Assembly (NCBI GenBank): GCA_043749385.1
Contig: JAYVDN010000214.1
Coordinates: 1-29,819, forward strand
Origin: Polaromonas sp.
Lineage (GTDB): Bacteria > Pseudomonadota > Gammaproteobacteria > Burkholderiales > Burkholderiaceae_C
Reading direction: 5' to 3'
DNA: 29,819 nt
Within the stretch, counting starts at the first letter, position 1. Each line of letters begins with the position of its first letter. This document shows positions 2,011-29,266 of this stretch, in pieces. The translations under genes were made by a program, and so were the position numbers. The notes under the pieces are model-generated. The model was not told the origin of the DNA, searched no databases, and saw nothing but the letters and a program-made list of their open reading frames with translations.

Positions 2011-2058
2011 GGCTGCAGGCCAATGAAATATAGCGGGAACAGCTATTAAATAAGAAGC
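2011..2058 (-). repeat. 48-bp dispersed repeat, copy a
   Basis: gcttcttatttaatagc tgttcccgctatatttc att ggcctgcagcc; overlaps the last codons and stop of the SDR gene. Confidence 0.8.
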
Positions 2059-3047
2059 AACTCGGGTTCCAAGCCAGCACGCAAACCGGCCTGTACATCA
2101 CCATAGCGCAGTACCAAACGCAGCTCTTCTTTCATTCGCGTGTTGTCTAGTCTGCGCGACTCACTCATAAACGACAGCAGCATCAGCGGCAGCTGGTCTT
2201 GCGCTGCATCGCGGCCCACGCGGGGCGGGCGGGGCAGGTTGTACAGGTCAGCGGCGGCATCGAAATAGTCGCCCATTTTGAGCTGCGTGTCGTCGCTTAC
2301 GTTGTAAACGCGCTGCGCTTTGCCGCGCCACAGGGCGGCTACTGTTGCGCGGGCCAGGTCATCGGCGTGGATGTGGTTGGTGTACACGTCGTCCTCAGCA
2401 CGCAGCACGGGCGTGCCTTTGAGCAGGCGCGCGCGCGGGGTGCCGCCCTCGCGGTCGGGGGCGTAGATGCCAGGGATGCGCAAGATGCTGGCGCGTACAC
2501 CGCTGGCGCGGCCGTAGTGGCGCAGCTGGCGCTCGGCATCTACCCGGCGCTGGGCGCGCGGGGTGTGCGGCTGCACGGGGCGCGCCTCGCTTACCCACGC
2601 GCCGCCGCAGTCGCCATACACACCGCTGGTGGAGCCGTAGACGATGCTCAGCGGTGCCGTGCGCCTGCGCAGTGCTTGCAGCAAGTGCTGGGTGCGTGGG
2701 TCGCGCCACCACTGGGCCGTTTGGCCCGCACCGCGCGCAGCCAGGCCCTCGCTGGGTGGCGGGGCCATGTGAATCACGCGGGTGGCAATGCCCGACAGGC
2801 GTGCCAAAGTAGCGGGGCTGTCTAAATTGCCGACGAGCGGCGTGACGCCCCAGGCACGCAGCTCAGCGACCCGGCTGGGTGTTGAGGTCAATGCGATGAC
2901 CCTGGCGCGCGGGCTCAAACGACCTGCAGGGGAGCTATTGAGATCCCGCGCCACGCGCAGACCCACGTCGCCGCAGCCGACGATCAAAATGCGGGCTTGG
3001 CGAAAGCGGCGAGGCCGCGCACCTAAAGGGGATTGGTTTGAAGGCAA
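2046..3047 (-). CDS. Atypical SDR / NAD-dependent epimerase-dehydratase family protein
   Basis: Rossmann motif ILIVGCGDVG, STSGVYGD, LRIPGIY, HIHADDLA; no canonical YxxxK seen. TTG start; exact start uncertain. Confidence 0.85.
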   Translation of the reverse strand: MPSNQSPLGARPRRFRQARILIVGCGDVGLRVARDLNSSPAGRLSPRARVIALTSTPSRVAELRAWGVTPLVGNLDSPATLARLSGIATRVIHMAPPPSEGLAARGAGQTAQWWRDPRTQHLLQALRRRTAPLSIVYGSTSGVYGDCGGAWVSEARPVQPHTPRAQRRVDAERQLRHYGRASGVRASILRIPGIYAPDREGGTPRARLLKGTPVLRAEDDVYTNHIHADDLARATVAALWRGKAQRVYNVSDDTQLKMGDYFDAAADLYNLPRPPRVGRDAAQDQLPLMLLSFMSESRRLDNTRMKEELRLVLRYGDVQAGLRAGLEPELLLI

Positions 3048-3156
3048 AATAGGGGATTAGCAAAAAGAATCTGCGGGACACACCTGCAGGAGAGCCTTCA
3101 AGCATACCAAGACCTGCGCTGCCCTACCTGGCGCAGGCAAAGTTTCAGGAACCCCT

Positions 3157-4194
3157 ATGTCGTTTACCGTTACCGTGCAGCCCAGTGGCCGCAGCTTCAC
3201 CGTCAACCCAGACCAGGCCATTTTGGCCGCAGGCATTGCGCAAGGCATAGGCATGCCCTATGGCTGCAAAGACGGGGCATGCGGCTCCTGCAAATGCAAA
3301 AAACTCCAGGGCATCGTGGTACACGGCCCGCACCAAAGCAAAGCGCTGAGCGATGAAGAAGAAGCCAATGGCTATGTGCTCACCTGCTGCGGCGTGCCGC
3401 ACAGCGACGTGGTGCTGGAGAGCCGCCAGGTCACCGAAGTGGGGGCCATGCCGATCAAAAAGATGCCCTCACGCGTCACCCTGCTAGAGAAAAAATCGCC
3501 CGACGTGATGCTGCTCACGCTGCAGCTGCCCGCCAACGACGTGATGCAGTTCCACGCCGGCCAGTACGTAGAGTTTTTGCTGCGCGACGGCGCACGGCGC
3601 AGCTATAGCATGGCCAATGCGCCGCACACCTTGGTGGCGGGCTCGCCCACCATTGAGCTGCACATCCGCCACACGCCCGGCGGCAAGTTCACCGACCATG
3701 TTTTCAGCGCGATGAAGGAAAAAGAAATTTTGCGCATCGAAGGACCGTTTGGCAGCTTTTATTTGCGCGACTCGGACAAGCCGATGGTGCTGCTGGCGTC
3801 CGGCACCGGCTTTGCGCCCATCAAGGCCTTGATTGAGCACATGCAGTTTAAAAACATCAAGCGCCCCGCCGTGCTGTACTGGGGTGGCCGCCGCCCCGAG
3901 GACCTGTATATGCACGACTGGGTGATGGCCAAGGTGGCCGAGATGCCCAACCTGACCTACATCCCCGTCATTTCCAACGCCACCGCTGAAGACGCTTGGA
4001 CAGGCCGCACGGGCTTTGTGCACCAAGCCGTGATGCAAGACCACCCCAATCTCAGTGGCCATCAGGTCTACGCCTGTGGCGCGCCGATTGTGGTGGACTC
4101 GGCCAAGGCCGACTATATTGGAAAATGCGGTTTGCCCGAAGACGAGTTTTTTGCAGATTCATTCACCACCGAGGCTGACAAGGCGAAGGCCTAG
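3157..4194 (+). CDS. 2Fe-2S ferredoxin / FAD-NAD(P) reductase (CDP-6-deoxy-delta-3,4-glucoseen reductase-like)
   Basis: CKDGACGSCKC...C iron-sulfur motif, RSYS FAD motif, SGTGFAP NAD motif, YACG near the C-terminus. Confidence 0.88.
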   Translation: MSFTVTVQPSGRSFTVNPDQAILAAGIAQGIGMPYGCKDGACGSCKCKKLQGIVVHGPHQSKALSDEEEANGYVLTCCGVPHSDVVLESRQVTEVGAMPIKKMPSRVTLLEKKSPDVMLLTLQLPANDVMQFHAGQYVEFLLRDGARRSYSMANAPHTLVAGSPTIELHIRHTPGGKFTDHVFSAMKEKEILRIEGPFGSFYLRDSDKPMVLLASGTGFAPIKALIEHMQFKNIKRPAVLYWGGRRPEDLYMHDWVMAKVAEMPNLTYIPVISNATAEDAWTGRTGFVHQAVMQDHPNLSGHQVYACGAPIVVDSAKADYIGKCGLPEDEFFADSFTTEADKAKA

Positions 4195-4262
4195 TTTCTT
4201 CGGCCGCATTCTCAAGCTCGCTACGACCCCCCGCCCACATCTGTCCATCTCTGAGGCCAAGC

Positions 4263-5249
4263 ATGTACACGCCATCTTCTATGCATCGATTAGCTCTTAA
4301 AACTATAGCTTGCGCCGCGATATTCTGCTGGGCTACAGGCAGTTTGGCACAACAAAAGACAATCCGCTTGGTCGTACCCTACGCAGCCGGTGGCCCGATC
4401 GACGTGACGGCCCGCGTGCTGGCCGAACGGGTGAAAGACAGCCTGGGCACGGTCATCATCGACAACAAGCCCGGCGCAGGTGGCAACATTGGAGCCGATG
4501 CGGTGGCCAAGGCCGCGCCCGATGGTTTGACCATTGGCATCGCCGCGCTGGCCACCCACGCTATCAACCCTTGGCTGTACAGCAAGATGCCTTACAACGC
4601 GGCCACAGACTTTGCGCCCATCACGCAAATGGTGCGCGTACCCAACGTGCTGGTGATGAACACCGACACCGCGGCACGGCTGAACATCAACACCCTGGCC
4701 GACCTGGTGCGCTATGCCAAAGCGAACCCCGGCAAGCTCAACTACGGCAGCGGCGGCAACGGCAGTGGTGGCCATTTGGCGGGTGAGATGTTCAAGCAGC
4801 AAGCGGGCGTGTTTGCCGTGCACATCCCCTACAACGGCGGCAACCCGGCCCAGTTGGCCCTGCTCTCAGGCCAGGTGGACTTTAACTTTGACAATCTGGC
4901 CACTGCCGCGCCCAACATCCGCGCAGGCAAGCTCAAAGCGCTGGCAGTGACCAGTGCCCAGCGCCACACAGCCCTGCCTGATGTGCCCGCTGTGGGCGAC
5001 ACCCTCAAAGGTTTTGAAGTAGACACCTGGTGGGGCTTGGTGGCGCCCAAAGGCACGCCGCCAGAGCTGGTAGAAAAATACAATAAAGCATTTGTGGAGG
5101 CACTAGGCCAAGAGGCCACCAAAACCCGCTTCGCCAGCCTGATGGCCGAGCCCGTGGCCAGCAGCAGCGCGCAGTTTGGCGCCATGATGCTGCGCGAGCT
5201 AGCCAAATACGAAAAGCCGGTCAAGGCCAGTGGCGCAAAAGTAGACTAA
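4263..5249 (+). CDS. Bug/TctC tripartite tricarboxylate transporter substrate-binding protein
   Basis: IRLVVPYAAGGPIDVTAR, DNKPGAGGNIG, HIPYNGG, LKALAVTS..R motifs. The start could instead be 4281. Confidence 0.92.
   Translation: MYTPSSMHRLALKTIACAAIFCWATGSLAQQKTIRLVVPYAAGGPIDVTARVLAERVKDSLGTVIIDNKPGAGGNIGADAVAKAAPDGLTIGIAALATHAINPWLYSKMPYNAATDFAPITQMVRVPNVLVMNTDTAARLNINTLADLVRYAKANPGKLNYGSGGNGSGGHLAGEMFKQQAGVFAVHIPYNGGNPAQLALLSGQVDFNFDNLATAAPNIRAGKLKALAVTSAQRHTALPDVPAVGDTLKGFEVDTWWGLVAPKGTPPELVEKYNKAFVEALGQEATKTRFASLMAEPVASSSAQFGAMMLRELAKYEKPVKASGAKVD
4293..4340 (+). repeat. 48-bp dispersed repeat, copy b (in Bug signal peptide)
   Basis: gctcttaaaactatagc ttgcgccgcgatattct gct gggctacaggc; the most diverged copy, but ungapped. 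Confidence 0.65.
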
Positions 5250-7135
5250 GGCCTGACCGGCACATTGCCCCGTGATTTGGGTGGTGCAATTAGGCTTGCG
5301 TTTTGCACTGGTGCAAGTCGGGGCTCAATCGGATTGGCTTCGATCGCGTCAATCTTGGCTACCAGGTCTTGTCTGCGTTTCACAGGATCTATCTCTGCGG
5401 CCATTTCACCCGGGCGCGAGCTCAGCGGTGAATCTACAAACTGCATTTTGCGCGGTGTGCCATGGCTCATTTGGTTCAAGCGCGTGCGCAGCGACTCCAT
5501 CACTTCATTGGCTGAAATGCCTTTGTCAGTCGGTGTCCAGACTGCCAAATGCACGTTGTACACGTCGCCATCGCTGAGGGTGCGGGTGGGTCGCAAACAG
5601 GTGGTGATAATTTTAGTGCTGAGCGCGGTGAGCATGTCGCGCGATACGGGCGACTCCACCAGGTAGACAAAATGGTCATCGTCCAAACGTGCCACGGTGT
5701 CAATGTTGCGCGCCAGGCGGCGCAAGCGCGCACCCAAATGCGACAGCACCGCACCACGTTGGGCCGATGACAAATTGTCTACTTGCTTGTTGTAGTCCAG
5801 CCAACGCAGCATGATGACGCCGCAAGGCTCTTCAAAGCGGGCGCTGCGGGCCAGCACCAGGGGCAAACGGGTAATGGCGATACGGGCGGAGGATAAACCG
5901 GTAGACATGTCGGTGTGTGCCAGCGCTGATTCACGCTCCAGCGCCGCTGAGCTCTCTTTGTTGCGCAGCACCAAGCCTGCGTACACCACCATCATGCCAA
6001 CACAGCCAGTGATAACGCTCAAGAGCTGCGCAACCTCGACGTGGGCGATCCAGCCAAAGTTATAGGACAAACGGGCCAACATCGACAGTGTGAGCGGTGC
6101 AAAGCCGCCCACCATCAACCACAACCATGGCTGGGAGCGCCAAGCCATCCACGCCAATGCACCCAGATTCCACAGCATGGCCACAGCGGCCAGCACGGTC
6201 AGGCCCATGCGCGGCAGGTTGTTTTGCATGACCGCAAACGCGAGCGAGCCTGCGAGTAGCAGCGCGATCAAGGCCAGCGATATTTGGTAAATGCGGGCAA
6301 AGGCCTCTTTGGCATAGCTGACCTTGACCACAAACCAGGTGCTGGCAGCCAAGGTCCACAGAGGCACTATCACCCCCATCACTTTATTGAGGTAAACGCT
6401 GTCTGGCCACAAGCGCAGGCCGGCAAAACCTATCAATACGAGTTGTGTCAAAAGCAGTGAAAACACCATCAAAGCAAACCACGCAAAATCCAGATTGCGG
6501 TTCATCCGCATGGAGACCAGGCCCAGCGCGGTCAATAGGCCAAACAGCCCCAGCATCAAACCCACAATGCCACCCACCAGGGAGGCCGAATTGATGTATT
6601 CGCTGGGGCTGATCAACTCGGGTCGCTCGGAAATGGGAGCGCGATGTTCCAGCTTGAGGTAATAGGTTTGCGGGTGGTCTGCGCGGGTGGACAACTCGAA
6701 GCTGGGCAAGCGGGTCGGCACAGGCCAGTGGTTGACGGCTATGTTCTCGCCTGCAGTCAATGTCATCCAGCCGCTTTGCTCGTTTTGAAAATACAAGGTG
6801 GCCTGCTCCAGCTGCATACGCGGAATACGCAGATACCAAGTTTGGGCAGTGGCGGTAGCGGGCAGTGCAAAACGCAGCCACACGTCACGCTCGGGTGCAG
6901 TGGGCAGCCCAGCGCCCGGGGCCAAGTCTACAAAGCCCTTGGCGCGGGCGGCATCGGTAAATTCGTTGGGGTTGCGTGCCGCCCCTTTGGGAAGAGCTTG
7001 CCACTGCAAGGGGGCCGCCAGCTTGAGCGTGGTGCTGTCATCAAACAGCTTGCCCAACTCTTGGGCCGTGGCCATTTGCGGCGCCCATAAACCAGCGCAT
7101 AGCAACCAACAGCAAAGGAGAAAATGTCTCAGCAC
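5246..7135 (-). CDS. 7TM-DISM extracellular + 7TM receptor protein with degenerate GGDEF domain
   Basis: Signal peptide; DISM2-like segment (VWLRFAL, WYLRI, AGENIAVNHWP); about 7 hydrophobic helices; GGDEF fold with DMSTGL and RNIDTVARLDDDHF in place of RxxD-x5-GGDEF. GTG start. Confidence 0.8.
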   Translation of the reverse strand: MLRHFLLCCWLLCAGLWAPQMATAQELGKLFDDSTTLKLAAPLQWQALPKGAARNPNEFTDAARAKGFVDLAPGAGLPTAPERDVWLRFALPATATAQTWYLRIPRMQLEQATLYFQNEQSGWMTLTAGENIAVNHWPVPTRLPSFELSTRADHPQTYYLKLEHRAPISERPELISPSEYINSASLVGGIVGLMLGLFGLLTALGLVSMRMNRNLDFAWFALMVFSLLLTQLVLIGFAGLRLWPDSVYLNKVMGVIVPLWTLAASTWFVVKVSYAKEAFARIYQISLALIALLLAGSLAFAVMQNNLPRMGLTVLAAVAMLWNLGALAWMAWRSQPWLWLMVGGFAPLTLSMLARLSYNFGWIAHVEVAQLLSVITGCVGMMVVYAGLVLRNKESSAALERESALAHTDMSTGLSSARIAITRLPLVLARSARFEEPCGVIMLRWLDYNKQVDNLSSAQRGAVLSHLGARLRRLARNIDTVARLDDDHFVYLVESPVSRDMLTALSTKIITTCLRPTRTLSDGDVYNVHLAVWTPTDKGISANEVMESLRTRLNQMSHGTPRKMQFVDSPLSSRPGEMAAEIDPVKRRQDLVAKIDAIEANPIEPRLAPVQNASLIAPPKSRGNVPVRP

Positions 7136-7325
7136 AAAATTTACTTTTTAAGTCTGCCTTCTGCGCGCCACATGCCGCAGTGAATGGCAAGGCCAGACTT
7201 TAGTTGTAAATTGGGTACTTGTTACGATTGTTTTTGCACTGTTGTGTGATAAGTCACATTATGAGGGCTGGGCCAATACCCGCCCTACAAGTGCGTGCGA
7301 TTTGCCACAGATTGATGCGACAAAT

Positions 7326-8054
7326 TTACTCGCCCAAATAAGCTGCCCGCACTTTCGGGTCGTTCAAAAGTTGCTTGGCCTCGCCACTCATGGTGATCAG
7401 GCCCGACTCCATCACGTAGCCCCGGTTGGCTATGCTCAGGGCGCGGCTGGCGTTTTGCTCTACCAGCAGCACGGTGACGCCTTGGGCGTACACGTCGCGC
7501 ACCACTTCAAAAATCTTGTCCACCATGATGGGCGACAGGCCCATGGAAGGCTCGTCCAGCAGCAGCACCTTGGGGCGGCTCATCAGCGCGCGGCCCATGG
7601 CCAGCATTTGCTGCTCGCCACCACTCATGGTGCCAGCCAACTGGTCTTTACGCTCTTTGAGGCGGGGAAAAATGCCAAACACTTTGTCGATGTCGTTGGC
7701 GATCTCGGCCTTGTCGGTGCGAATGTAGGCACCCATCTGCAAGTTCTCGGTAATCGTCATGCGGGCGAACACGCCGCGCCCTTCGGGCACCATGGCCAAG
7801 CCTTGTTTGACCAAGTCCCACGAGCCTTTGCCAGCGATGTTTTGGCCCAAGTATTCAATCGTGCCCCCAGCGGCAGCCAGTGAGCCGGTGATGGCCTTCA
7901 TGGTGGTGGTTTTACCTGCACCGTTGGAGCCTATCAAGGTGACCAGCTCGCCCTCACGAACTTCAAAGTCTGCGCTCTTGACGGCCTGGATGCCACCGTA
8001 AGACACTTTGAGGCCCGATACCTTGAGCAGGACTTTGTTGCTTTGTTCAGTCAT
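7326..8054 (-). CDS. livF: Branched-chain amino acid ABC transporter ATP-binding protein
   Basis: GSNGAGKTT Walker A, MSGGEQQM signature, LLLDEPS, C-terminal VRAAYLG. Confidence 0.95.
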   Translation of the reverse strand: MTEQSNKVLLKVSGLKVSYGGIQAVKSADFEVREGELVTLIGSNGAGKTTTMKAITGSLAAAGGTIEYLGQNIAGKGSWDLVKQGLAMVPEGRGVFARMTITENLQMGAYIRTDKAEIANDIDKVFGIFPRLKERKDQLAGTMSGGEQQMLAMGRALMSRPKVLLLDEPSMGLSPIMVDKIFEVVRDVYAQGVTVLLVEQNASRALSIANRGYVMESGLITMSGEAKQLLNDPKVRAAYLGE

Positions 8055-8069
8055 GTTGTCAGTTCCTCT

Positions 8070-8843
8070 TCAGGCGTGGCCTGCGCCTAAGTAGGCTTCA
8101 ATCACTTTTTCATTTTTTTGCACTTCAGCAGGCGTGCCTTCGGCAATTTGCTTGCCATAGTCCAGTACGGTCACGCGGTCGCACAGGCCCATCACCAGCT
8201 TCACGTCGTGCTCAATCAACAGAATAGTGCGGTTGTCTTTGCGGATCTGGTCGATCAGCTCGCGCAGCAGTACCTTCTCGGTGGCGTTCATGCCTGCGGC
8301 GGGCTCGTCCAGCGCAATCAGCTGCGGGTCGGTGGCAAGCGCCCGGGCAATTTCCAGGCGGCGTTGGTCGCCGTAGCTTAGTGTGCGGGCTTTGTAGTCG
8401 GCAAACTTGCCTATGCCTACGTAGTCCAGCAGCTCTTGGGCGCGCTTGGCAATGGCGGCTTCTTCCTGCCGCGCAGCGGGGGTGCGAAACAGCGCGCCCA
8501 GCACGCCCGCGTGGGTGCGCACATGGCGGCCTACCATCACGTTTTCCAAGGCCGTCATTTCGTTGAACAAGCGGATGTTTTGGAAGGTGCGTGCAATGCC
8601 TGCCTTGGCCACCTCATGCACCGCGCTAGGCGTGTAGGGCTTGCCTGCCAGCTCAAAGCTGCCGCTGTCGGGCGTGTACAGGCCGGTCAGCACGTTGAAG
8701 AAGGTGGTTTTGCCTGCGCCGTTGGGGCCGATCAGGCCGTACACCTGGCCGCGCTGGATGGTGATGCCTACATCGCTTAAGGCCTGCAGGCCGCCAAAGC
8801 GTTTGGAGACGCCGCCTACTTTGAGAACTGTGTCTGAAGTCAT
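8070..8843 (-). CDS. livG: Branched-chain amino acid ABC transporter ATP-binding protein
   Basis: FGGLQAL, GPNGAGKTT, ARTFQNIRLF, LSYGDQRR, LDEPAAG, VIEAYLG. Confidence 0.95.
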   Translation of the reverse strand: MTSDTVLKVGGVSKRFGGLQALSDVGITIQRGQVYGLIGPNGAGKTTFFNVLTGLYTPDSGSFELAGKPYTPSAVHEVAKAGIARTFQNIRLFNEMTALENVMVGRHVRTHAGVLGALFRTPAARQEEAAIAKRAQELLDYVGIGKFADYKARTLSYGDQRRLEIARALATDPQLIALDEPAAGMNATEKVLLRELIDQIRKDNRTILLIEHDVKLVMGLCDRVTVLDYGKQIAEGTPAEVQKNEKVIEAYLGAGHA

Positions 8844-8926
8844 AGTGCCCCCACGCTGGTCATTGCATGGTCGGCGCTGCCCCCCATGAGGGTCTTCGCA
8901 CCTTGAAGCGGTTCTGCGGTGTTCAT
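8840..8926 (-). CDS. Putative 28-aa small ORF between livM and livG (MNTAEPLQGAKTLMGGSADHAMTSVGAL)
   Basis: GGAGAA SD directly after the livM stop, ATG at 8926; its TGA overlaps the livG ATG (ATGA). Below the ORF-track cutoff. Confidence 0.45.
   Translation of the reverse strand: MNTAEPLQGAKTLMGGSADHAMTSVGAL
8847..8911. repeat. Probable degenerate copy of a second REP-like element (CCCCCACGCT...GCTGCCCCCC type)
   Basis: gcccccacgctg...cgctgcccccc resembles an intergenic repeat I recall from Comamonadaceae genomes. Single copy in this window, so it cannot be confirmed here. Confidence 0.35.
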
Positions 8927-8936
8927 TGAGTTCTCC

Positions 8937-10043: not shown

Positions 10044-10061
10044 TTTTGTGTCTCCCGGGGG

Positions 10062-10991: not shown

Positions 10992-11048
10992 ATATTGTTC
11001 TCCGAGATGTAAAGCCAGTATGCACCTGTGATGCTAATTCTGGCTAGC

Positions 11049-11092
11049 AAAAAACCCGCCAAATTTTGACTTGTGGTCGCCATAGGCGGGTT
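11049..11092 (-). terminator. Terminator-like hairpin upstream of livH
   Basis: The minus strand reads AACCCGCC-24 nt-GGCGGGTT-TTTT. The long loop is atypical. Confidence 0.5.
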
Positions 11093-11200
11093 GGTGGGGG
11101 GATTGTAGCCAAGGGCTATGCCTGCGCGAGGCCTCGCTTTCCTCGATACGGCGGGGTTTACCCTCAAGGTACCAGCCGTATCAGCTGCATTATTTTAATA

Positions 11201-12487
11201 TTAGTTTTTCTTATTATTGAGTTTCTTCAGTTCACGTAGCTTATCAGCTATTTTGATCTCCAGCCCGCGCTCTACCGGGCGGTAAAACTCGTTGTGCATG
11301 CCCTCGGGTAAATAGGTCTCACCTGCCGCAAAGCCGCCGTCTTCGTTGTGCGCGTAGCGGTAGCCCTTGCCATAGTCCAGCTCTTTCATCAGCTTGGTGG
11401 GGGCGTTGCGCAGGTGCATGGGCACCGGGCGGGTGCCGTCTTTTTTAATCCAGGCGCGGGCCTCGTTGTAGGCGGTGTACACGGCATTGCTTTTGGGCGC
11501 AATGGCCAGGTAAATCGCACACTCGGCCAGCGCCAGCTCACCCTCTGGGCTGCCCAGGCGCTCGTACACTTCAGCTGCATTGAGCGCAATTTGCAGGGCG
11601 CGCGGGTCGGCCAGGCCGATGTCTTCCGCCGCCATGCGGATCAAGCGGCGCGCCATGTATTTGGGCTCGGCCCCGCCGTCGAGCATGCGCACCAGCCAGT
11701 ACAGGGCGGCGTCAGGGTCAGAGCCGCGCACGCTTTTGTGCAGCGCGCTGATGGTGTCGTAAAACTGTTCGCCGCCCTTGTCGTAGCGGCGCATTTGCTG
11801 GCCCAGCACCTTGGTCAGCCACGCGTTGGTGATGCTGGTGATTTTCTCTTTGTCAGCCGCTACAAACAGCGTCTCCAGCGTGTTCAGCAGGCGGCGTGCA
11901 TCGCCATCGGCATAGGCTACAAGTTTCTTTACTGCTACAGGTTCTATAGCTGCTCCCGCGATATTTTGTTGGGCTCGGGCCATTATTTGTTCTAAATCAT
12001 CGTCTTTTAAGGGTTGCAGCACATACACGGCCGCGCGGGACAGCAGGGCCGAGTTCACCTCAAAGCTGGGGTTCTCGGTGGTGGCACCAATAAAGGTGAA
12101 CAGCCCGCTTTCCACATGCGGCAAAAAAGCATCCTGCTGGCTTTTGTTAAAGCGGTGCACCTCGTCTACAAACATGATCGTACGCCTGCCTTGGTCACGC
12201 CAGATGGTGGCTTGCTCAACTGCCTCCCGAATGTCTTTCACCCCGCCCAGCGTGGCGCTGATGGTAATAAAGTGCGCATCAAACGCACTGGCCATCAGCC
12301 GCGCAATCGTCGTCTTGCCCACCCCCGGCGGCCCCCACAGAATGCAGCTGTGCGGCACCCCAGATTCAAACGCCACTCGCAGCGACATACCCTCGCCTAG
12401 CAAGTGCTGCTGCCCAATCACCTCGCCCAGCGTTTTGGGTCGCAACTGCTCGGCCAGCGGCATGTGGGTAGGGGGGGCTTGGGTCAT
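11201..12487 (-). CDS. rarA: Replication-associated recombination protein A (AAA+ ATPase)
   Basis: PLAEQLRP, WGPPGVGKTT, FVDEVHRFNK, GATTENPSF, SALHKSVRGSD, EDIGLADP. Start revised to MTQAPP (12487); uncertain. Confidence 0.95.
   Translation of the reverse strand: MTQAPPTHMPLAEQLRPKTLGEVIGQQHLLGEGMSLRVAFESGVPHSCILWGPPGVGKTTIARLMASAFDAHFITISATLGGVKDIREAVEQATIWRDQGRRTIMFVDEVHRFNKSQQDAFLPHVESGLFTFIGATTENPSFEVNSALLSRAAVYVLQPLKDDDLEQIMARAQQNIAGAAIEPVAVKKLVAYADGDARRLLNTLETLFVAADKEKITSITNAWLTKVLGQQMRRYDKGGEQFYDTISALHKSVRGSDPDAALYWLVRMLDGGAEPKYMARRLIRMAAEDIGLADPRALQIALNAAEVYERLGSPEGELALAECAIYLAIAPKSNAVYTAYNEARAWIKKDGTRPVPMHLRNAPTKLMKELDYGKGYRYAHNEDGGFAAGETYLPEGMHNEFYRPVERGLEIKIADKLRELKKLNNKKN
11934..11981 (+). 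repeat. 48-bp dispersed repeat, copy c (inside rarA, antisense)
   Basis: gctacaggttctatagc tgctcccgcgatatttt gtt gggctcgggcc. Confidence 0.85.
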
Positions 12488-12647
12488 GCACAGCATTTTA
12501 GGCGGCTGTAGGTCAAAACGATGGCCTTGTCGGCGAAGCAGAAGTCCTGAGCTACGAAGCACCCTAGGCGGCACTGGCGTTTGAGTTGTGGCCTCACTCC
12601 CGACGCCGCTGGGCCCACGCTGTTGATGCTACTTCTGCGTTTTTCGC

Positions 12648-12695
12648 ACTACATATTTCGTAGCTGCTCCCGCGATGTTCTATTGGCTCGCAGCC
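12648..12695 (+). repeat. 48-bp dispersed repeat, copy d
   Basis: actacatatttcgtagc tgctcccgcgatgttct att ggctcgcagcc; inverted partner of copy e. Confidence 0.85.
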
Positions 12696-12819
12696 CGATA
12701 CGTATCTAAAAAAGGCTCTAAAAATGCCAAATTTTCGGTTTTCTGCCGATTTTCAGGCTTTCAGAGCCTCCTGAGCCCTCCCAAATCGTGTTTTTGACCT
12801 GTTTTTCAGGTGCCAATCA

Positions 12820-12867
12820 GGCGGCAGACCAATAGAATATCGCGGGAGCAGCTACTTAATACATAGC
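12820..12867 (-). repeat. 48-bp dispersed repeat, copy e
   Basis: gctatgtattaagtagc tgctcccgcgatattct att ggtctgccgcc; 7 nt after the lolA stop. Confidence 0.85.
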
Positions 12868-12874
12868 ATATGTT

Positions 12875-13513
12875 TTACTGCTTGACCACGTCCACACCCG
12901 CTGGGGCTTTGAAGTTGAAGGTGTCCTGTGCCAAAGCAATGTTGGCCTCTACTTTTTGAAACTTCAGCACCGAGCGCTGGCCAAAGCTGTCCAAAATGTC
13001 GAGTGCGGCCAGCTCGCCCCCCGCCGTTTTAAAGCCGACGCGGATGCTTTGCAGGCTGCCCTCTTTGGCTTTGGGGGTGGCCAGCACCCAGCTCAGGCCG
13101 TCTTGGTCGGGGGCAGATTTGAGGCTGAAGTTTTGCTCCAGTGATTTGAGATCGGACGACGAGGCGATGATGGCTGCGGGCGTGTTGGCCAGCACAGCGG
13201 CTTGTTTGCTGCTAGTGACTTGGTTCAGGTCTACGTCGTACATCCACAGGGTTTGGCCGTCGGCTACCAGGGTTTGCTCAAAAGGTTTTTTGTAGACGAA
13301 CTTGAAGCGGTTGGGGCGGGCGAACTCGAAGTTGCCGGTGCTGGTTTTGACCTTGGGGGCTTGGCCGTCGCGGCCCGGCGAAGTCACAGTTTGGGTGAAC
13401 TCGGCGCGGCCAGACTGTGTGGATTTGAGGAAGCTTTCCAAGCTTTCCAGGCCACTAGCCCAGCAAAATGTCGCGGGAGCAGCTATTAAAAAAATAGCTA
13501 TTAAATTTCTCAT
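12875..13513 (-). CDS. lolA: Outer-membrane lipoprotein chaperone LolA
   Basis: FTQTV, GNFEFARPNRFKF, LVADGQTLWMYDVDLNQVT, TPAAII; position between ftsK and rarA. Start revised to MRNLIA (AAGGA SD). Confidence 0.92.
   Translation of the reverse strand: MRNLIAIFLIAAPATFCWASGLESLESFLKSTQSGRAEFTQTVTSPGRDGQAPKVKTSTGNFEFARPNRFKFVYKKPFEQTLVADGQTLWMYDVDLNQVTSSKQAAVLANTPAAIIASSSDLKSLEQNFSLKSAPDQDGLSWVLATPKAKEGSLQSIRVGFKTAGGELAALDILDSFGQRSVLKFQKVEANIALAQDTFNFKAPAGVDVVKQ
13451..13498 (-). repeat. 48-bp dispersed repeat, copy f (in LolA signal peptide)
   Basis: gctatttttttaatagc tgctcccgcgacatttt gct gggctagtggc. Confidence 0.85.
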
Positions 13514-13621
13514 GACTGCATCCTTCACGTTCACCCAAGGGTGTTTACAACTCTGCTTACTCGTCTGACATACCCATGCGACTTACCTAAACCACTTCAC
13601 GCTACAGTGCACCCACGCGGA

Positions 13622-18373: not shown

Positions 18374-18391
18374 TTTCTAGGAGAAAAAATC

Positions 18392-18559
18392 ATGGCAAAA
18401 GGCGGACGTGAAAAAATCAAACTGGAATCCACAGCGGGTACCGGTCATTTCTACACCACAACAAAAAACAAGAAAACCATGCCCGAGAAGATGTTGATCA
18501 GCAAGTTTGATCCCAAAGCTCGCAAGCATGTGGAATACAAAGAAGTGAAGTTGAAGTAA
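18392..18559 (+). CDS. rpmG: 50S ribosomal protein L33 (no CxxC zinc motifs)
   Basis: Translated by hand: [55 protein letters not shown] (55 aa), AGGAG SD. Missing from the ORF track. Confidence 0.97.
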
Positions 18560-18574
18560 TTCAACCAGCTTCGC

Positions 18575-18604
18575 AAAAAAACCGCTCTGTTGAGCGGTTT
18601 TTTT
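18575..18604. terminator. Bidirectional intrinsic terminator between rpmG and yacG
   Basis: A-tract, ACCGCTC-tgtt-GAGCGGT stem-loop, then T-tract. Confidence 0.85.
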
Positions 18605-18679
18605 ATGGTTCGGTGCGGTCCAGGCTGCGACAGTCAAACTTCCATGACGGCAGTCAAGCCCGGGTATATTCATTTATAT

Positions 18680-18727
18680 GCTGCAAAATATATAGCTGCT
18701 CCCGCGATATTTTAAAGGGCTACAGCC
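18680..18727 (+). repeat. 48-bp dispersed repeat, copy g
   Basis: gctgcaaaatatatagc tgctcccgcgatatttt aaa gggctacagcc; 4 nt beyond the yacG stop. Confidence 0.88.
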
Positions 18728-18731
18728 TAAT

Positions 18732-18974
18732 TCAATGTAGATTTTCGTATTTGGCATCGCCAAACACTTCATCGGGTGGAGGTGTAGCGCTGGGCACGCG
18801 AAACGATTCGCTGGCCCAGGCTCCAAAGTCATGGTCTTTGCAGCGCTCACTGCAAAACGGGCGCCATTTGTTGCTCGGCGCAAAAATGCTATCGCCTTTA
18901 CAACTCGGGCAAATGACGGTCGGAGAAGCTGATTTGACAGACGTAGGTGTGCTCATGGCGGTGGTCTTTTTCAT
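18732..18974 (-). CDS. yacG: DNA gyrase inhibitor YacG
   Basis: CPSC...[19 protein letters not shown] zinc finger; ATGA overlap with the zapD stop (alternative start 18956). Confidence 0.92.
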
Positions 18975-19729
18975 GCGCACAACGTCAGCTCAAAAGTGGC
19001 ATCTTCACCACTGACTACAGGCAGTTTGTCTTCGCCTGCCCCACGCAGCAAGCGCACTGAAACCATCAACCGGTTACCGCTGATTTCGGGAATCAAGCCC
19101 AAAGCAGGGTCAATGCGCAGGCGCAGTAACTGAAAGCTGCGCCCTTGTGGCAGGGTTTGTTGGAATTGCCCGTTGGTCGCCATGACTTTTTGGGCTGAAC
19201 CGGAGTCGCGCAAAAGCTTGAGTAGCAAGTTGATGCATTGCGCCAGGGGCCACAACGTGGAGGCCCAGCGCGTGAGATCTGCGCGGCGCTGTTCCAGGCT
19301 AAGGTGCTGCCAGTGGAAATAGGCGGGCAAATCAAATTCGCAGGTGCCCGCAGGAATGCCTATGCGGCTGCGCACGCTGACAACCCATTCGTTATCGTTC
19401 AGGGAGGTGCCTACCTTGCCCGACTGGCCGTTGAGGGCGGAAAAAGCATGTTCTATCTGACCCACCACCTCGTCCAACGCGCTTTCAGCGATAGCGGGAT
19501 TGCCACGGTAGGCGTTGAATTGTTGCTTGTGTTTTTCCAGATCCTTGAGAATCTCAGATTTCAGGTCGGAGCGTGCTCCGACCTCGATGATTTCAAACAC
19601 AGTGACAAAGGCGAAATGGTGGTCCAGCGCGGATTCACGCGCAAGCAGTATGCCCAAGCGCTCAAACAGGTGCTCCAGGCGCAGGTAAGTGCGCGCGCGT
19701 TCGTTAAAAGGGTATTCGTAAACTATCAC
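18971..19729 (-). CDS. zapD: Cell division protein ZapD
   Basis: [34 protein letters not shown]; coaE-zapD-yacG order. Confidence 0.93.
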
Positions 19730-19753
19730 GTGAGGTGCTTTCGTCAGGCACCA

Positions 19754-20356: not shown

Positions 20357-20427
20357 GAAGGTGTTGGGATGCCAATTAAGCGGCGCGCTTCAAGATGTGC
20401 CGCTTTAGATCAGGCATAGTAAGCGCT

Positions 20428-22490: not shown

Positions 22491-22548
22491 GCTGTCTCCG
22501 CAGTGGATTGCTAATTGTGGATAAACGTGGTGTGCAGAGCATGTGTGT

Positions 22549-24297
22549 TTATTGGTTAGTGCAGGCAAGTACTTCTTCTAATGAAGTAATGCCAAGGCGA
22601 ACCTTGCTGAGGCCCGATTGGCGCAAACTGCGCACACCCTCTTGTTCGGATAGTTTGGCGATATCCAGTGCGCTGGCATCAGCCAAAATCAGGCGCTGCA
22701 TGTCTTCACTGATCGGCATTACTTGATAGATGCCGACCCGACCTTTGTAGCCGTTGTTGCACATCGAGCAACCGACCGGTTTAAAGGGTGTCCAGCTACC
22801 GTCGATGTCTTCTTCTTTGTAGCCCGCGGTGACCAGATTTTCGTAGGGAATATCAGCCGGCTGCTTGCAGCTAGGGCACAGCTTGCGTGCCAAACGCTGG
22901 GCTGTAATCAATATCACGCTCGAAGCAATGTTGAACGGCGCAATACCCATGTTACGCATGCGCGTAAGGGTGGTGGGCGCATCGTTGGTGTGCAGGGTGC
23001 TCATGACCATGTGGCCAGTTTGGGCCGCTTTGATGGCGATGTCGGCGGTCTCCAGGTCGCGAATCTCACCGACCATGATCACGTCAGGATCTTGGCGCAA
23101 GAAGGATTTAAGGGCAACCGCAAACGTCAACCCTGCCTTGTCGTTCACGTTTACCTGGTTAACTCCAGGCAGGTTAATCTCGCAGGGGTCTTCCGCCGTC
23201 GAGATGTTTACGCCGGGTTTGTTGAGCAAATTCAAGCAGGTATAGAGCGACACAGTTTTCCCAGAGCCAGTGGGCCCTGTGACCAACACCATGCCGTAAG
23301 GGCGTTCGATGGCTTTGAGAAGGCGCTCTTTCTCCTCCTGCTCGTAACCCAGCGCTTCAATGCCCAGCCTGGCACTAGACGGATCCAAAATACGAATCAC
23401 AATCTTTTCGCCAAACATGGTGGGCAGGGTGCTGACCCGGAAGTCGATCATCTTGTCGCGGCCCATCTTCATCTTCATGCGGCCGTCCTGCGGCACACGT
23501 TTCTCGGAGATATCCAATCTGGATATGACTTTGATGCGCGAGGCAAGCTTGTCTTTGATGACCACAGGCGGCGATGCAATTTCGCGCAATTCCCCATCGA
23601 CTCGAAAACGCACCCGATAAGTATGTTCGTAGGGCTCAAAATGCAGATCGGATGCGCGCATGTTGAAAGCATCAATCAGCATTTTTTGTAGAAACTTGAC
23701 GATAGGCGCATCTTCGACATCGGTTGCGCCGGTGTCCGTGTCGTCCTCACTCGCCACTTCCATAGTGGCTTCGTCAAACTCAAAATCGCCACTCACCATG
23801 CTATCCATGGCTTCGTTGACGTTGACCATAGTCGCGTCTACAAGCCGAGAAAGCTTGTCATATTCCGCAATGACCCAATCAGTGCCCATTTGGGTGGAGA
23901 ATTTGATTTTTTCAGCGCCTACTTGGTCAGACGGATCTGCGGTGGCTACGATCAGGCGGTTATTGCGTTTGCTTAAGACCACTACACGCAGGGCTTGGCA
24001 CAGCTTAGGGTCTAGCAATCCTTTGGGCAGACGCTGAGTGTCGATGGCATCCAAGTCCAGCAGCGGTGCTGCAAAAGCGATAGACATGGTGTGGGCCAGA
24101 TCGGCGGCAGACACCACCCCTGAGCCAGTGAGCTCCGCAATAAAACTGGTGCGGTTGGTCTGGGATTTTTTATAAATATCCTCAGCCGTCTTTTGCTGCA
24201 GTTTGCCAGCCATCACCAAGGCGCGGCCCAAGCCCGGTAATGCCACCAAGGGCGCCTGGGCAAATGCGAGATTAGCGGGGGTGTCTACAGCGGCCAT
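22549..24297 (-). CDS. pilB: Type IV-A pilus assembly ATPase PilB
   Basis: ASDLHFEP, PQDGR, TGPTGSGKT, LRQDPDVIMVGEIRD, STLHTN, CPSC/CSMC zinc motifs. Confidence 0.96.
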   Translation of the reverse strand: MAAVDTPANLAFAQAPLVALPGLGRALVMAGKLQQKTAEDIYKKSQTNRTSFIAELTGSGVVSAADLAHTMSIAFAAPLLDLDAIDTQRLPKGLLDPKLCQALRVVVLSKRNNRLIVATADPSDQVGAEKIKFSTQMGTDWVIAEYDKLSRLVDATMVNVNEAMDSMVSGDFEFDEATMEVASEDDTDTGATDVEDAPIVKFLQKMLIDAFNMRASDLHFEPYEHTYRVRFRVDGELREIASPPVVIKDKLASRIKVISRLDISEKRVPQDGRMKMKMGRDKMIDFRVSTLPTMFGEKIVIRILDPSSARLGIEALGYEQEEKERLLKAIERPYGMVLVTGPTGSGKTVSLYTCLNLLNKPGVNISTAEDPCEINLPGVNQVNVNDKAGLTFAVALKSFLRQDPDVIMVGEIRDLETADIAIKAAQTGHMVMSTLHTNDAPTTLTRMRNMGIAPFNIASSVILITAQRLARKLCPSCKQPADIPYENLVTAGYKEEDIDGSWTPFKPVGCSMCNNGYKGRVGIYQVMPISEDMQRLILADASALDIAKLSEQEGVRSLRQSGLSKVRLGITSLEEVLACTNQ

Positions 24298-24497
24298 GCA
24301 ATATGTGTCAGAGTGAAGCGGTTAGTAACGCAAAGGTATAGTATGCCAGTATCATCGCCGATAGCCGCTTAGCTGTAAACCTGTCAATTAAAGGGGCACC
24401 CTGAGCTTATGCAGTGTCAGAGTTCCTGCAAGTGCTTGATCAGGTGTTCGCCATGCTTCAGTCGACACGCAACATCAAGTCTAGCGGTATTGAAAAA

Positions 24498-25481
24498 CTA
24501 AGCCCGGCGCACGAGCAACTGCGCCGCTAATTCTAGCAAGGCCTGTGTAAAAGGGTTGTTTGGCAACAACGACAGCGTGTCAATTGCCCGCTGCGCCTCG
24601 TGCGCTGCCGCTTGCCGTGTGGCTTCCAAGCTGCCCGTCGCACGCACGATGTGCACCACTTGGTCGAGTTGGTCGATACCACCTGACTCAATCGCGTCCC
24701 GTACCAGCTGCGCTTGCGGGGGTGATGCGCGCTGCATGGCGATGATCAGCGGGAGAGTCGCCTTGCCCTCGCGCAGGTCGTCTCCCAGGTTTTTGCCCAT
24801 TTCCTGAATATCACCGTCATAGTCCAGCACGTCGTCAATCACTTGAAAAGCCGTGCCCAGGGCTTGCCCGTAGTTGGCGCAGGCGGCCTCCACTGCGGTA
24901 CTGCTGCCCGCTATCACGGCGGCCAAACGGGCACTGGCTTCAAACAATTTGGCTGTTTTGGAGCGAATCACCCGCAAATAACCAGCCTCATCCAGCGAAG
25001 CATCGTGCATATTCATCAGTTGCAGCACCTCACCCTCTGCGATCACATTGGTGGCTTCGGCCAGTATCTCCATCACCCGCATTTGGCCGCTTTCGACCAT
25101 CATCTGAAATGCACGTGAGTACAAAAAATCGCCCACCAACACGCTGGCGGGGTTGCCAAAAGCCTCATTCGCTGTCGAGCGCCCCCGGCGCAGGGTGGAT
25201 TCGTCCACCACATCATCGTGTAGCAAGGTAGCGGTGTGGATAAATTCCACGACAGCTGCCAAATTGAAACGCTGGCTCTGGGTATAGCCCAACGCGCCGC
25301 ACATCAAAAGCAACAGGGCGGGGCGCAGGCGCTTGCCACCGGCGGAGATGATATAGCTGGAGACCTGGCCCACCAGTGGGACACCGGAGTCGAGCCGTGC
25401 TGCAATGACCTTGTCTACCTCGGCCATGTCTTGGGCGATAAGTTGCAGGGCGGCTGTGGTGGCGTTGGAGGTAGCGGACAA
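24498..25481 (-). CDS. ispB: Octaprenyl-diphosphate synthase (polyprenyl synthetase)
   Basis: GGKRLRP, HTATLLHDDVVD (FARM), FQVIDDVLD (SARM), GKNLGDDLREGK. Start uncertain (TTG 25481 or a later ATG); a minus-strand TATAAT at 25522-25527 argues against 25562. Confidence 0.93.
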   Translation of the reverse strand: MSATSNATTAALQLIAQDMAEVDKVIAARLDSGVPLVGQVSSYIISAGGKRLRPALLLLMCGALGYTQSQRFNLAAVVEFIHTATLLHDDVVDESTLRRGRSTANEAFGNPASVLVGDFLYSRAFQMMVESGQMRVMEILAEATNVIAEGEVLQLMNMHDASLDEAGYLRVIRSKTAKLFEASARLAAVIAGSSTAVEAACANYGQALGTAFQVIDDVLDYDGDIQEMGKNLGDDLREGKATLPLIIAMQRASPPQAQLVRDAIESGGIDQLDQVVHIVRATGSLEATRQAAAHEAQRAIDTLSLLPNNPFTQALLELAAQLLVRRA

Positions 25482-25577
25482 AATATAAATCTTAGTTCGG
25501 AACACGGACAGGGTGGGCTTGATTATAGGAATACAGGCGGCCTCCGATTGCTGCTCACACATGTACTTCCAGCGAGT

Positions 25578-25606
25578 TTGTCAGTAACCGCTCACCATGC
25601 TATAAT
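25578..25606 (+). promoter_or_regulatory. sigma70 promoter for rplU-rpmA
   Basis: TTGTCA (25578-25583), 17-bp spacer, TG-c-TATAAT (extended -10, 25601-25606). Confidence 0.75.
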
Positions 25607-25668
25607 CTAAGGCTCTGTGGAAATTCGTCCGCAGACACTCATTTAGACAAACATTCTAAGAGGTTCTT

Positions 25669-26313
25669 ATGTACGCGGTCGTAAAAACCGGTGGCAAACA
25701 ATATAAAGTTGCTGCCGGCCAAAAATTTAAAGTAGAACAGATCGCTGCGGACGTAGGCCAAGAGATTGTGTTGGATCAAATTTTAGCAGTCGGTAACGGC
25801 GCTGAATTATTGATTGGCGCACCTTTGGTCCCCGGCGCAGCGATTAAAGCCACCATCGTGGCCCATGGTCGTGGTGACAAGGTACGCATTTTCAAAATGC
25901 GTCGCCGTAAGCACTACCAAAAGCGCCAAGGCCATCGCCAAAACTTCACCGAGCTGTTCATTGCGGAAATCGCTGACGGCAAAGGTGGCGTTTTCAAAGC
26001 CGAAGCTGCTGCAGTCATTGCTGCTCCCAAGGCTGCCAAAGCTAGCCCCGTTGCTGGTCAAGACGATCTGGAAATCATCGAGGGCATCGGCCCCAAGATG
26101 GCCCAGGTGTTGATCGACAATGGCGTGATCACCTTTGCGCAAGTAGCTGCAGCCTCGGTCGATGAACTGACGGCCATGCTCAAGGCATCGGGCGGACGTT
26201 TCAGCTTGGCAAGCATTGCAACGTGGGCTGAACAAGCCGCGCTGCTGCGTGATGGCAAGATGGACGAGTTCAAGAAGCTTACCGACGAACTCGTCGGTGG
26301 CGTTCGTAAATAA
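25669..26313 (+). CDS. rplU: 50S ribosomal protein L21 with C-terminal helix-hairpin-helix extension
   Basis: aa 1-101 typical L21 ([14 protein letters not shown]...GHRQNFTE), then an Ala/Lys linker and [12 protein letters not shown]...TWAEQAALL; 214 aa in total. Confidence 0.95.
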
Positions 26314-26331
26314 TTTTTTTGGAGCTTTGAA

Positions 26332-26592
26332 ATGGCACAGAAAAAAGGCGGCGGCTCTACGCGAAATGGCCGGGATTCAAACCCCAAGATGCTCGGTGTG
26401 AAAGCTTTCGGTGGTGAACTTATCACCGCTGGCGCGATCATCGTGCGCCAACGTGGCACCAAGTTTCACGCTGGCAACAACGTGGGCATGGGCAAAGACC
26501 ACACCCTGTTTGCTTTGGTAGACGGCAATGTGTCCTTTGGGCACAAAGGCGCGTTGAACAAGCACATGGTGAACGTGACTGCGGCTGCGTAA
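26332..26592 (+). CDS. rpmA: 50S ribosomal protein L27
   Basis: [34 protein letters not shown]. Confidence 0.97.
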
Positions 26593-26616
26593 GCAACTGC
26601 GAGGCGTTTGCCCAGC

Positions 26617-26647
26617 AAAGCCCCGCCTGTGCGGGGCTTTGTTTTTT
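26617..26647 (+). terminator. Intrinsic terminator after rpmA
   Basis: AAAGCCCCGC-ctgt-GCGGGGCTTT followed by GTTTTTT. Confidence 0.85.
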
Positions 26648-26741
26648 CTTCTGTAAACTCTCAAAAAAGCGCCGGGCCGTCCCAAGCTCAATTTTGCTTA
26701 TTAAACTGGCAAAGAGTATGGTCGGAACGCCCAGGCGATAA

Positions 26742-27923
<1,182 letters not shown>

Positions 27924-27991
27924 AATTGCCGAAAACGTGCGCGGCAATTAGCTGGGCGGCGCTTTCATCGCTATCATCCACGCTGCTGAAC

Positions 27992-28039
27992 GCTATATAT
28001 TAAATAGCTGCTACCGCGATATTTTAAAGGGCTGCAGCC
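27992..28039 (+). repeat. 48-bp dispersed repeat, copy h
   Basis: gctatatattaaatagc tgctaccgcgatatttt aaa gggctgcagcc; 32 nt upstream of proB. Confidence 0.88.
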
Positions 28040-28071
28040 CTAAAACTATATAAATATAGAAGCTTTACGCC

Positions 28072-29208
28072 ATGAAACCACAGGCTTTGGACACCACCCT
28101 GCAGAGCGCACGGCGCATCGTCGTCAAAGTAGGCTCCAGCCTGGTCACCAACGAGGGGCGAGGTCTGGATGAAGCTGCTATTGGGCTGTGGTGCGCGCAA
28201 CTCGCCGCGCTGGCGGCAGACAAGCGTGAGGTAGTTATGGTCTCCAGCGGGGCGATCGCCGAGGGCATGAAGCGCCTGGGCTGGGCAGCGCGGCCCCACG
28301 CCATCCATGAGCTGCAAGCCGCCGCTGCGGTAGGCCAAATGGGCCTGGCGCAGATGTACGAGACCAAGCTGCGCGAGCACGGCCTGCGCAGCGCCCAGGT
28401 ACTGCTCACCCATGCCGACCTGGCCGATCGTGAGCGTTACCTCAACGCCCGCTCCGCCTTGCTCACCCTGTTGCAGCACGGCGTGGTGCCCGTCATCAAC
28501 GAAAACGACACCGTGGTGACCGATGAGATCAAGTTTGGCGACAACGATACTTTGGGCGCGCTCGTGGCCAACTTGGTGGAGGCCGACGCCTATGTGATTT
28601 TGACCGACCAAAAAGGCCTGTTCACTGCCGATCCGCGCAAAGACCCCGAAGCCCAATTTGTCGCGGTGGCCAAAGCGGGTGATCCTGAGCTGGAGAAGAT
28701 GGCCGGCGGCGCTGGCTCCTCCATTGGCAAAGGCGGCATGATCACCAAAATTCTTGCTGCCAAACGCGCAGCCGGCTCGGGTGCTAGTACTGTGATAGCG
28801 TGGGGACGCGAGCCGGATGCGCTGATTCGCCTGACCCAAGGTGAAGCCATTGGCACCCTACTGGTGGCGCAAACGGCTAAAAACCAGGCCCGCAAGCAGT
28901 GGATGGTGGACCATTTGCAGCTTGCCGGTGGCGTGCTGGTAGACAACGGCGCGGCGGCACGCCTGCGTGAAGGCAAGGCCAGCTTGCTGCCGATTGGCAT
29001 GGTCGGCGTGACGGGCGAGTTTTCTCGCGGCGACGTCATCGCCATCATCGACGCGCAAGGCCAGGAGATTGCGCGCGGCCTGGCCAACTACGCCAGCGCC
29101 GAGGCACGGTTGATTTGCCGCAAAGCTACTACAGAGTTTGAGGCGCTGCTGGGTTATATTGGTGAACCAGAGATGGTGCACAAAAATAATTTGGTGCTTA
29201 AAAAATAA
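28072..29208 (+). CDS. proB: Glutamate 5-kinase with PUA domain
   Basis: [41 protein letters not shown]-terminal PUA domain. Confidence 0.96.
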
Positions 29209-29218
29209 TGTTATTTAG

Positions 29219-29266
29219 CCCGCTAGGTCACTAGAATATCGCGGGAGCAGCTATTGAATAGATAGT
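29219..29266 (-). repeat. 48-bp dispersed repeat, copy i
   Basis: actatctattcaatagc tgctcccgcgatattct agt gacctagcggg; 10 nt after the proB stop. Confidence 0.85.

Follow-up and report, generated by a model that had tools for sequence, protein, structure and literature searches.

A hairpin-free repeat family of Polaromonas, possibly of the REP/REPIN kind, with inverted doublets, coding copies and species dialects

The DNA analyzed here, a stretch of 29,819 nucleotides (the window; contig JAYVDN010000214.1, handle C214), belongs to a metagenome-assembled genome (MAG) of Polaromonas sp. (handle G000; 3.82 Mb in 748 contigs, 58% GC, 77% complete), and carries nine copies of a dispersed repeat element, labelled a to i in the order of their positions. 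An earlier note on this DNA had listed nine copies of 48 bp without indels, starting at 2011(−), 4293(+), 11934(+), 12648(+), 12820(−), 13451(−), 18680(+), 27992(+) and 29219(−), and our realignment placed all nine at these positions and on these strands, gap-free over 48 nt. A 22-nt core pattern, searched with at most three mismatches, matched eight of the nine copies, as compared to 0.00 matches expected from 100 shuffles; the ninth, copy b, is more diverged and lies outside these matches. The dyad pattern of the element was found 10 times in the window versus 0.41 times expected. No copies beyond the nine were found in the window, an Rfam scan of the window gave no match at any of them, and promoter and terminator scans revealed no association with the copies.

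Of the nine copies, three fall in coding sequence. Copy b (4293–4358, plus strand), a diverged singlet, encodes in sense frame 0 the signal peptide of a TctC/Bug-family binding protein (open reading frame, ORF, 4263–5249), and copy f (13433–13498, minus strand), also a singlet, encodes in the same frame the signal peptide of LolA (ORF 12875–13534, minus strand). Thus, two proteins of the window use the element as a signal peptide. Singlet c (11934–11999, plus strand) runs antisense within rarA (11201–12574, minus strand), where it encodes ARAQQNIAGAAIEPVA as a length-neutral overprint. The relatives with which these sites and others were compared are not independent of one another. They include G008, about 86% identical to the present genome, the sister species G004, G014, and G152, a dyad-poor and repeat-free relative from another genus; three of them were read in part (1.2 Mb of G152, 400 kb of G008, C1:1-400000, and part of G004). 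Orthologues of the signal-peptide DNA of copy b in four relatives each show the dialect, that is, the form of the element, of their own species, and the lolA signal peptide at the site of copy f has the dyad in records of Polaromonas, Rhodoferax, Curvibacter, Paracidovorax, Hydrogenophaga and Acidovorax.

Copies d (12648, plus strand) and e (12820, minus strand) form, as its arms, a single inverted doublet of 220 bp (12648–12867) and are joined tail to tail across a 124-bp spacer in the intergenic gap between lolA and rarA; it belongs to a 221-bp doublet class, and the whole unit was also found in G014. Singlets g (18680–18745, plus strand; intergenic, from the L28/L33 region to zapD, 18971–19729, minus strand) and h (27992–28057, plus strand; intergenic, from obg, 26760–27923, to proB, 28072–29208) are of an AA subtype, and singlet i (29201–29266, minus strand) lies in the intergenic region between the convergent proB and a CNP1-like gene (29364–29819, minus strand). 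Just upstream of copy g, at 18545–18623, the Rfam family Leu_leader matched both strands below threshold (31.8 and 25.5 bits versus a gathering score of 50); this match probably reflects nothing more than a hairpin or terminator behind the L28/L33 genes. Singlet a (1993–2058, minus strand; 48-nt core at 2011–2058 and an 18-nt tail) overlaps the stop codon of an epimerase-family gene (2046–3047, minus strand), and relatives also have a copy at the 3′ end of this gene, in an orientation that differs by species or in their own dialect. It stands at a synteny break: synteny with all five congeners stops at about 2100–2130, exactly at copy a. The only counterpart in the congeners of the region 160–1959, which holds a TPR protein and an AT-rich gene called a TIR protein in the earlier note, is a 154-bp match in G014. 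Window positions 160–2130 look like a variable island bordered by a repeat copy.

The profile scan suggested earlier as a check on copy number, strand bias and indels was run with a profile built from the nine window copies (threshold E<1e-4). It found 707 matches in the genome, about 700 copies or one per 5.4 kb, with equal use of the strands (363/344) and 704 of the 707 free of indels; no strand or position polarity of the copies was seen. The sequence logo of 686 copies is conserved from position 0 to about 66, so that the gap-free 48-nt alignment stood but the element is longer than the 48-bp unit described before. It consists of the dyad RCTAY-N7(A/T)-RTAGC, a near-invariant core (positions 14–32), a TTGG..CT.CAGCC tail, and then ATT and an A-run. 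Positions 14–18 (TAGCT) are 93–100% conserved and position 13 is R, as in the GTAG-type head of repetitive extragenic palindromic (REP) sequences, and the same head is conserved across the bacterial family. Mutual information among the 686 copies revealed only subtype signals of neighbouring positions, in agreement with the subtypes noticed previously in the window: at positions 36/37, 501 copies have TT and 117 have AA. The LysR-like T-N11-A geometry pointed out in the earlier note is trivial for about 700 sites, and a reading of the element as a LysR site was rejected, as a regulon would not be expected to comprise some 700 sites, each with a conserved body of 66 bp.

The copies prefer gene 3′ ends. 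According to a crude home-made codon-usage gene caller, on which all gene-context figures rest, convergent intergenic regions had 2.3 copies per kb, tandem ones 0.95 and divergent ones 0.46, and the copies in tandem regions were unbiased in orientation (124 vs. 112) and lay at a median of about 34 bp from the upstream stop. Wholly within called genes were 138 copies (about 20%). The antisense frame LAQQNIAGAAI, where open, was mostly inside long ORFs (82/131), and 17 copies in sense frame 0 were N-terminal, with a reading that resembles a signal peptide (..IAAPAIF.WA..). These coding copies matter when Comamonadaceae genomes are annotated and MAGs are assembled, as a repeat that supplies signal peptides to unrelated exported proteins also overprints a conserved enzyme.

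A composite form of the element is made up of two copies. We found 105 tail-to-tail pairs with a gap of 125 bp in nearly all of them, 124 bp in eleven and 115 bp in twelve, and only four head-to-head and three direct pairs within 400 bp; clearly, the inverted doublet has a fixed length. It is 221 bp long with inverted ends of about 66 nt, next to about 480 singlets, whose ends fall at about 45 to 80 nt in the doublet unit. In oriented units, the 89-bp spacer is directional, asymmetric and moderately conserved, with A/T tracts every 10–11 bp or so, and it was found in both orientations. The doublet arms were intergenic in 203 of 204 cases, and singlets lay inside called genes in 137 of 482. Among 81 copies in the 400 kb of G008 there were no 221-bp doublets, showing that the doublet expansion is lineage-specific. 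In the case of most doublets (including d0, d8, d61, d66 and d97, on contigs C457, C734, C289, C633 and others), one flank only maps to a G008 contig, so doublets are often at synteny breaks; one doublet site of the present genome is occupied by a singlet in G008.

Units of 221 bp with inverted ends of about 66 nt, expanded in one lineage and missing from 400 kb of G008, could also be an ordinary miniature inverted-repeat transposable element (MITE) of a DDE-type insertion sequence (IS), with the 48–66-bp arms as its terminal inverted repeats. This is the weakest of the rival explanations, and we consider it highly improbable. Target-site duplications were counted at 102 doublets for k = 2–8 and offsets 0–6 and were at chance level at every length and offset, as expected of HUH-type but not of DDE-type mobility. 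Moreover, plus/minus pairs facing outward at IS-like distances of 0.4–4 kb were not in excess (27, versus 46, 41 and 28 in the other orientations), none of them enclosed a transposase, and no parent IS was found in this fragmented MAG, from whose assembly IS copies may be missing. The singlets outnumber the doublets and are equally conserved, and the changes of dialect in place described below would be unexpected of MITEs.

The doublet gaps differ by 10 bp, about one helical turn, which suggests, under the REP/REPIN-like explanation favoured below, that the two arms may be held in one looped nucleoprotein complex on a spacer phased by A-tracts. Such spacing would also suit host-serving architectural sites. 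In E. coli, the bacterial interspersed mosaic elements (BIMEs) are clusters of REPs bound by integration host factor (IHF) and gyrase. By analogy, the dyad and a bent spacer would bind a nucleoid or topology protein, for instance IHF, gyrase or some other dimer, and selection for this function would preserve sequence and spacing, even though the origin and spread of the sites could still be REP-like. The strict length of the element, doublet spacers 10 bp apart and the phased A/T tracts fit this explanation. So does the conservation of the copies, which between species exceeds that of the non-coding flanks (beside copies orthologous in G008, these flanks are often unalignable), and the core identity of coding copies, 0.89 as compared to 0.91 in non-coding ones. 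Like BIMEs, for which recognition by DNA-bending or topology proteins is assumed, the present repeats are composite, located at gene 3′ ends and fixed in internal architecture; contrary to BIMEs, with which they share no sequence relationship, they contain no IHF-like consensus that we could recognize. However, the family is gone from whole lineages, close relatives included, and nothing evident has taken its place, a strand or position polarity is absent, and it is hard to reconcile site-by-site selection with hundreds of sites switching dialect together. We therefore regard the architectural explanation as unlikely.

The switching of dialects was apparent from the relatives. Over 121 genera of the family, the dyad is bimodal, with about 100–840 occurrences per strand in about 45 genera and 0–30 in the rest (reversed-pattern control, about 100), which bears out the mention in the earlier note of GCTAT..ATAGC repeats in Comamonadaceae. 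Thus, the dyad is abundant, with hundreds of copies, in about one third of the genera, and the core and tail are species-specific. The core of the present dialect was counted 649 times here and 607, 466, 316 and 228 times in four congeners, and it is nearly or wholly missing from other genera and from the remaining congeners, which have dialects of their own. The form characteristic of G004 is present in 435 copies in that genome, in 178, 164 and 127 copies in three others, in four copies here and in one in G008, so that the copy counts of dialects are complementary between genomes. The on/off pattern of the dyad among genera offers a handle for tracing the responsible protein by phylogenetic profiling.

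At orthologous sites the copies persisted. Among the sites that could be mapped to G008, 23 of 28 were occupied, in the same orientation, and the orthologous copies were alike at 40.9 of 48 positions, gap-free, with 138 non-consensus states in common, which indicates that they descend from one copy. In the comparison with G004, 17 of the 21 mapped sites were occupied. At 12 positions diagnostic of the two dialects, the copies showed the state of their own species at a mean of 7.7 and 8.2 positions and that of the other species at 2.4 and 2.3. At the three coding sites, the protein sequence changes along with the dialect of the DNA, so that the NIAGAA of RarA in the present genome is NAAQAA in G004. 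Taken together, these results show that the copies persist in place and are inherited vertically, and that the whole family evolves concertedly to a species consensus. Turnover by fresh insertion cannot account for the coding sites. Why REP-type repeats are uniform within a species and yet different between species is a question that dates back to the first descriptions of species-specific palindromic units, and this family is an unusually clean test case for it: with hundreds of copies free of indels at orthologous sites of sister species, 12 diagnostic positions and some copies in conserved genes, whose orthology is beyond doubt, conversion in place can be distinguished from turnover.

The dialect evolution at orthologous sites and the coding overprints go beyond what the earlier note had described. 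Two further observations concern single dialects. Core position 21 is C in 25% of the G008 copies versus 4% here, also at orthologous sites with T in the present genome, which may be a dialect shift under way. Moreover, 7 of 52 G004 copies retain the dialect of the present genome (TGCTCCCGCG...), including variants with an open antisense frame that are possibly coding; the switch in G004 is therefore incomplete, and coding constraint may have held it back.

The antisense copy in rarA is a length-neutral overprint. The RarA segment from LLSR to GDAR, shorter than that of E. coli MgsA (PDB 3pvs), is 51 amino acids long in all 10 genomes compared, including those of four dyad-poor genera. The underlying DNA agrees with the 48-nt consensus at 37–39 positions in three genomes of the present dialect, at 29–31 in two other Polaromonas, at 18 in a third, at 26 in G152 and at 14–16 in distant genera. 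Dialects at conserved positions are known from uptake sequences, the DNA uptake sequences (DUS) of Neisseriaceae and the uptake signal sequences (USS) of Pasteurellaceae, which have cores of 9–12 bp and occur about once per kb. As DUS and USS, the present copies occur on both strands and inside and outside of genes, their position is conserved between species, their consensus is lineage-specific, and the dialect changes in place. A molecular drive of this kind, in which a bias of uptake or recombination favours fragments with the motif and the sites follow the specificity of the receptor in place, would explain the lack of length change at rarA over 10 genomes, the dialects at orthologous sites, coding ones and their proteins included, and the equal use of strands. 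It would also suit the occurrence of coding copies in tolerant regions and in several frames, and the seeming decay of sites in family-free lineages, as at the rarA site of G152. Nevertheless, we consider this explanation improbable. No known uptake signal comes near the length of this motif, 48–66 bp, which is found just once per 5.4 kb, there is no known link to competence, and point mutation cannot account for the spread of the 221-bp doublets, whose directional, repeated spacer requires copying. In addition, 36 other coding copies were compared with G152, a comparison that is only indicative because G152 is of another genus and the regions are variable; the net length change within 25 amino acids of the copy ranged from −7 to +37, with a median of +10 as compared to a background of 0.8 in windows of equal size. 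About one third of the coding copies were length-neutral, and many others, the majority in this comparison, coincided with added residues.

In the latter respect, the element resembles the Rickettsia palindromic elements (RPE; Ogata et al. 2000), which are longer palindromic insertions, in frame in genes: both are dispersed repeats in frame within protein genes, and the present element may likewise add peptide segments in tolerant regions. Unlike RPE, some of the coding copies described here are length-neutral overprints and others are signal peptides, and all of them are in the dialect of their species. Another repeat, the Betaproteobacterial repeat element (BRE; Hot et al., PMC3110155), was also reported in Polaromonas and other Comamonadaceae, with some copies in coding sequence, but BRE is about 90 bp long, GC-rich (69%) and arranged in tandem, and its copy number does not exceed 29, so that an identity with it was ruled out. 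Literature searches for the core sequences, or for RAYT (REP-associated tyrosine transposase) or REPIN (REP doublets forming hairpins) together with Comamonadaceae genera, found no account of this repeat family.

The closest known kind are the REP/REPIN–RAYT systems of Pseudomonas and Enterobacteria (PMC3116915, PMC5581495). As in these, the repeats of the present family are short, extragenic and present in hundreds of copies, have a conserved xTAG head, form inverted doublets of fixed length and lack target-site duplications; they also persist vertically at orthologous sites and have a species-specific consensus. A possible further parallel is the doublet beside a single-copy gene resembling a Y1 transposase. 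We therefore favour, with a confidence that is evenly balanced, the explanation that the nine copies belong to a REP/REPIN-like, non-autonomous, long-lived and protein-recognized repeat family of about 480 singlets of 48–66 bp and about 105 doublets of 221 bp. Its unusual traits are the lost hairpin, strict length, coding overprints, use as signal peptides and concerted evolution in place. In contrast to REP/REPIN–RAYT systems, the element has no hairpin or compensatory changes, its arms are 66 nt long, its spacer of 89 bp is directional, about 20% of the copies are in coding frames, the dialect changes in place, and the occurrence of the RAYT-like gene does not follow that of the repeats, with a score of its protein under the cut-off of the RAYT model.

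The best candidate for the recognizing protein, although its link to the repeats is weak, is a single-copy RAYT-like Y1 (HUH) transposase encoded outside the window. Two genes of the genome match PF01797 (Y1_Tnp). One of them, the single-copy RAYT-like gene encoding 239 amino acids, is followed, 44 bp past its stop codon and on this flank only, by a doublet; with 105 doublets and about 3,900 genes, the chance of such a neighbour is about 3% for a given gene. An abundant repeat in the flank of a RAYT is the REPIN criterion of Bertels et al. (PMC5581495), and here such a repeat is found on one side. The gene is syntenic upstream of gltB in 20 genera, most of which have a copy in their own dialect directly 3′ of it. 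One genus shows a perfect 14-bp hairpin in this copy, immediately behind the same dyad, and thereby links the family to hairpin REPs.

A number of results weigh against the REP/REPIN-like explanation and against this candidate. Base-pair covariation was not found in 686 copies, in which dyad positions 1/17 and 5/13 vary independently. The nine window copies fold no better than shuffles (z about 0) and vary in structure among themselves; in the doublets, arm-to-arm complementarity was not higher than column composition predicts. With covariation absent, fold z about 0 and arm pairing at chance, a hairpin REP is ruled out in this species, and known RAYTs bind REP hairpins. With the NCBIfam RAYT model NF047646, the Y1 protein encoded beside the doublet reached 72.9 bits and the other 54.7 bits, both below the cut-off of 80. 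A RAYT whose presence tracks the element had been proposed as something to look for, but presence or absence of the RAYT-like gene failed as a tracker: of 120 genomes sampled, 113 yielded an orthologue, dyad-poor ones included, and it is intact in G152, in 1.2 Mb of which no 16-mer occurs more than six times. The copy in the flank of the gene is one conserved orthologous site among many, like the lolA site. The predicted structure of a dimer of the RAYT-like protein with the element DNA did not separate the real sequence (0.69) from a shuffled one (0.70). Finally, the seeding of conversion at the dyad, which the mechanism considered below would require, is something that we infer.

The earlier note had preferred a protein-recognized site to a classic hairpin REP. 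The lack of covariation and of a stable fold supports this, and strict length without a hairpin indeed fits the recognition of duplex DNA by a protein better than a classic hairpin REP. The homology with REP-like relatives that bear hairpins, the REPIN-like doublets and the adjacent RAYT-like gene nevertheless argue for filing the element beside REP/REPIN and not as an unrelated site. Under the REP/REPIN-like explanation, a dimeric sequence-specific protein would read duplex DNA at the dyad RCTAY-N7-RTAGC and would occasionally copy the element to new sites. Nicking of the dyad by the same protein could then seed short-patch conversion from other copies, homogenizing the core and tail; the conservation, which falls outward from positions 14–32, fits a conversion that starts at the dyad. 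A bolder extension, which we put forward tentatively and hold to be rather unlikely, is that a protein-directed conversion drive acting in place keeps all copies uniform, those embedded in genes included. In this case, the element would dictate the amino acids of tolerant segments, such as the RarA linker and signal peptides, which would be rewritten as the specificity of the recognizer drifts. If true, the family would be a long-motif analogue of uptake-sequence dialects and not a product of classic transposition.

Two minor observations were made around the Y1 transposase-like genes. Between the RAYT-like gene and gltB (C716:7340–7853), about 20 genera keep two boxes, GTCCCCAATTAA-like and TCTGACCCCAATTAA-like, which contain inverted AATTAA/TTAATTGG parts and are essentially unique in the genome. 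As they are not repeated, they were rejected as the REP of the RAYT-like protein, and they are probably the regulatory region of gltB. The second Y1_Tnp protein (C520:12487–13311), which is cut by a contig end, has a C-terminal HTH_23 domain, and its relatives are mostly found in dyad-poor genomes.

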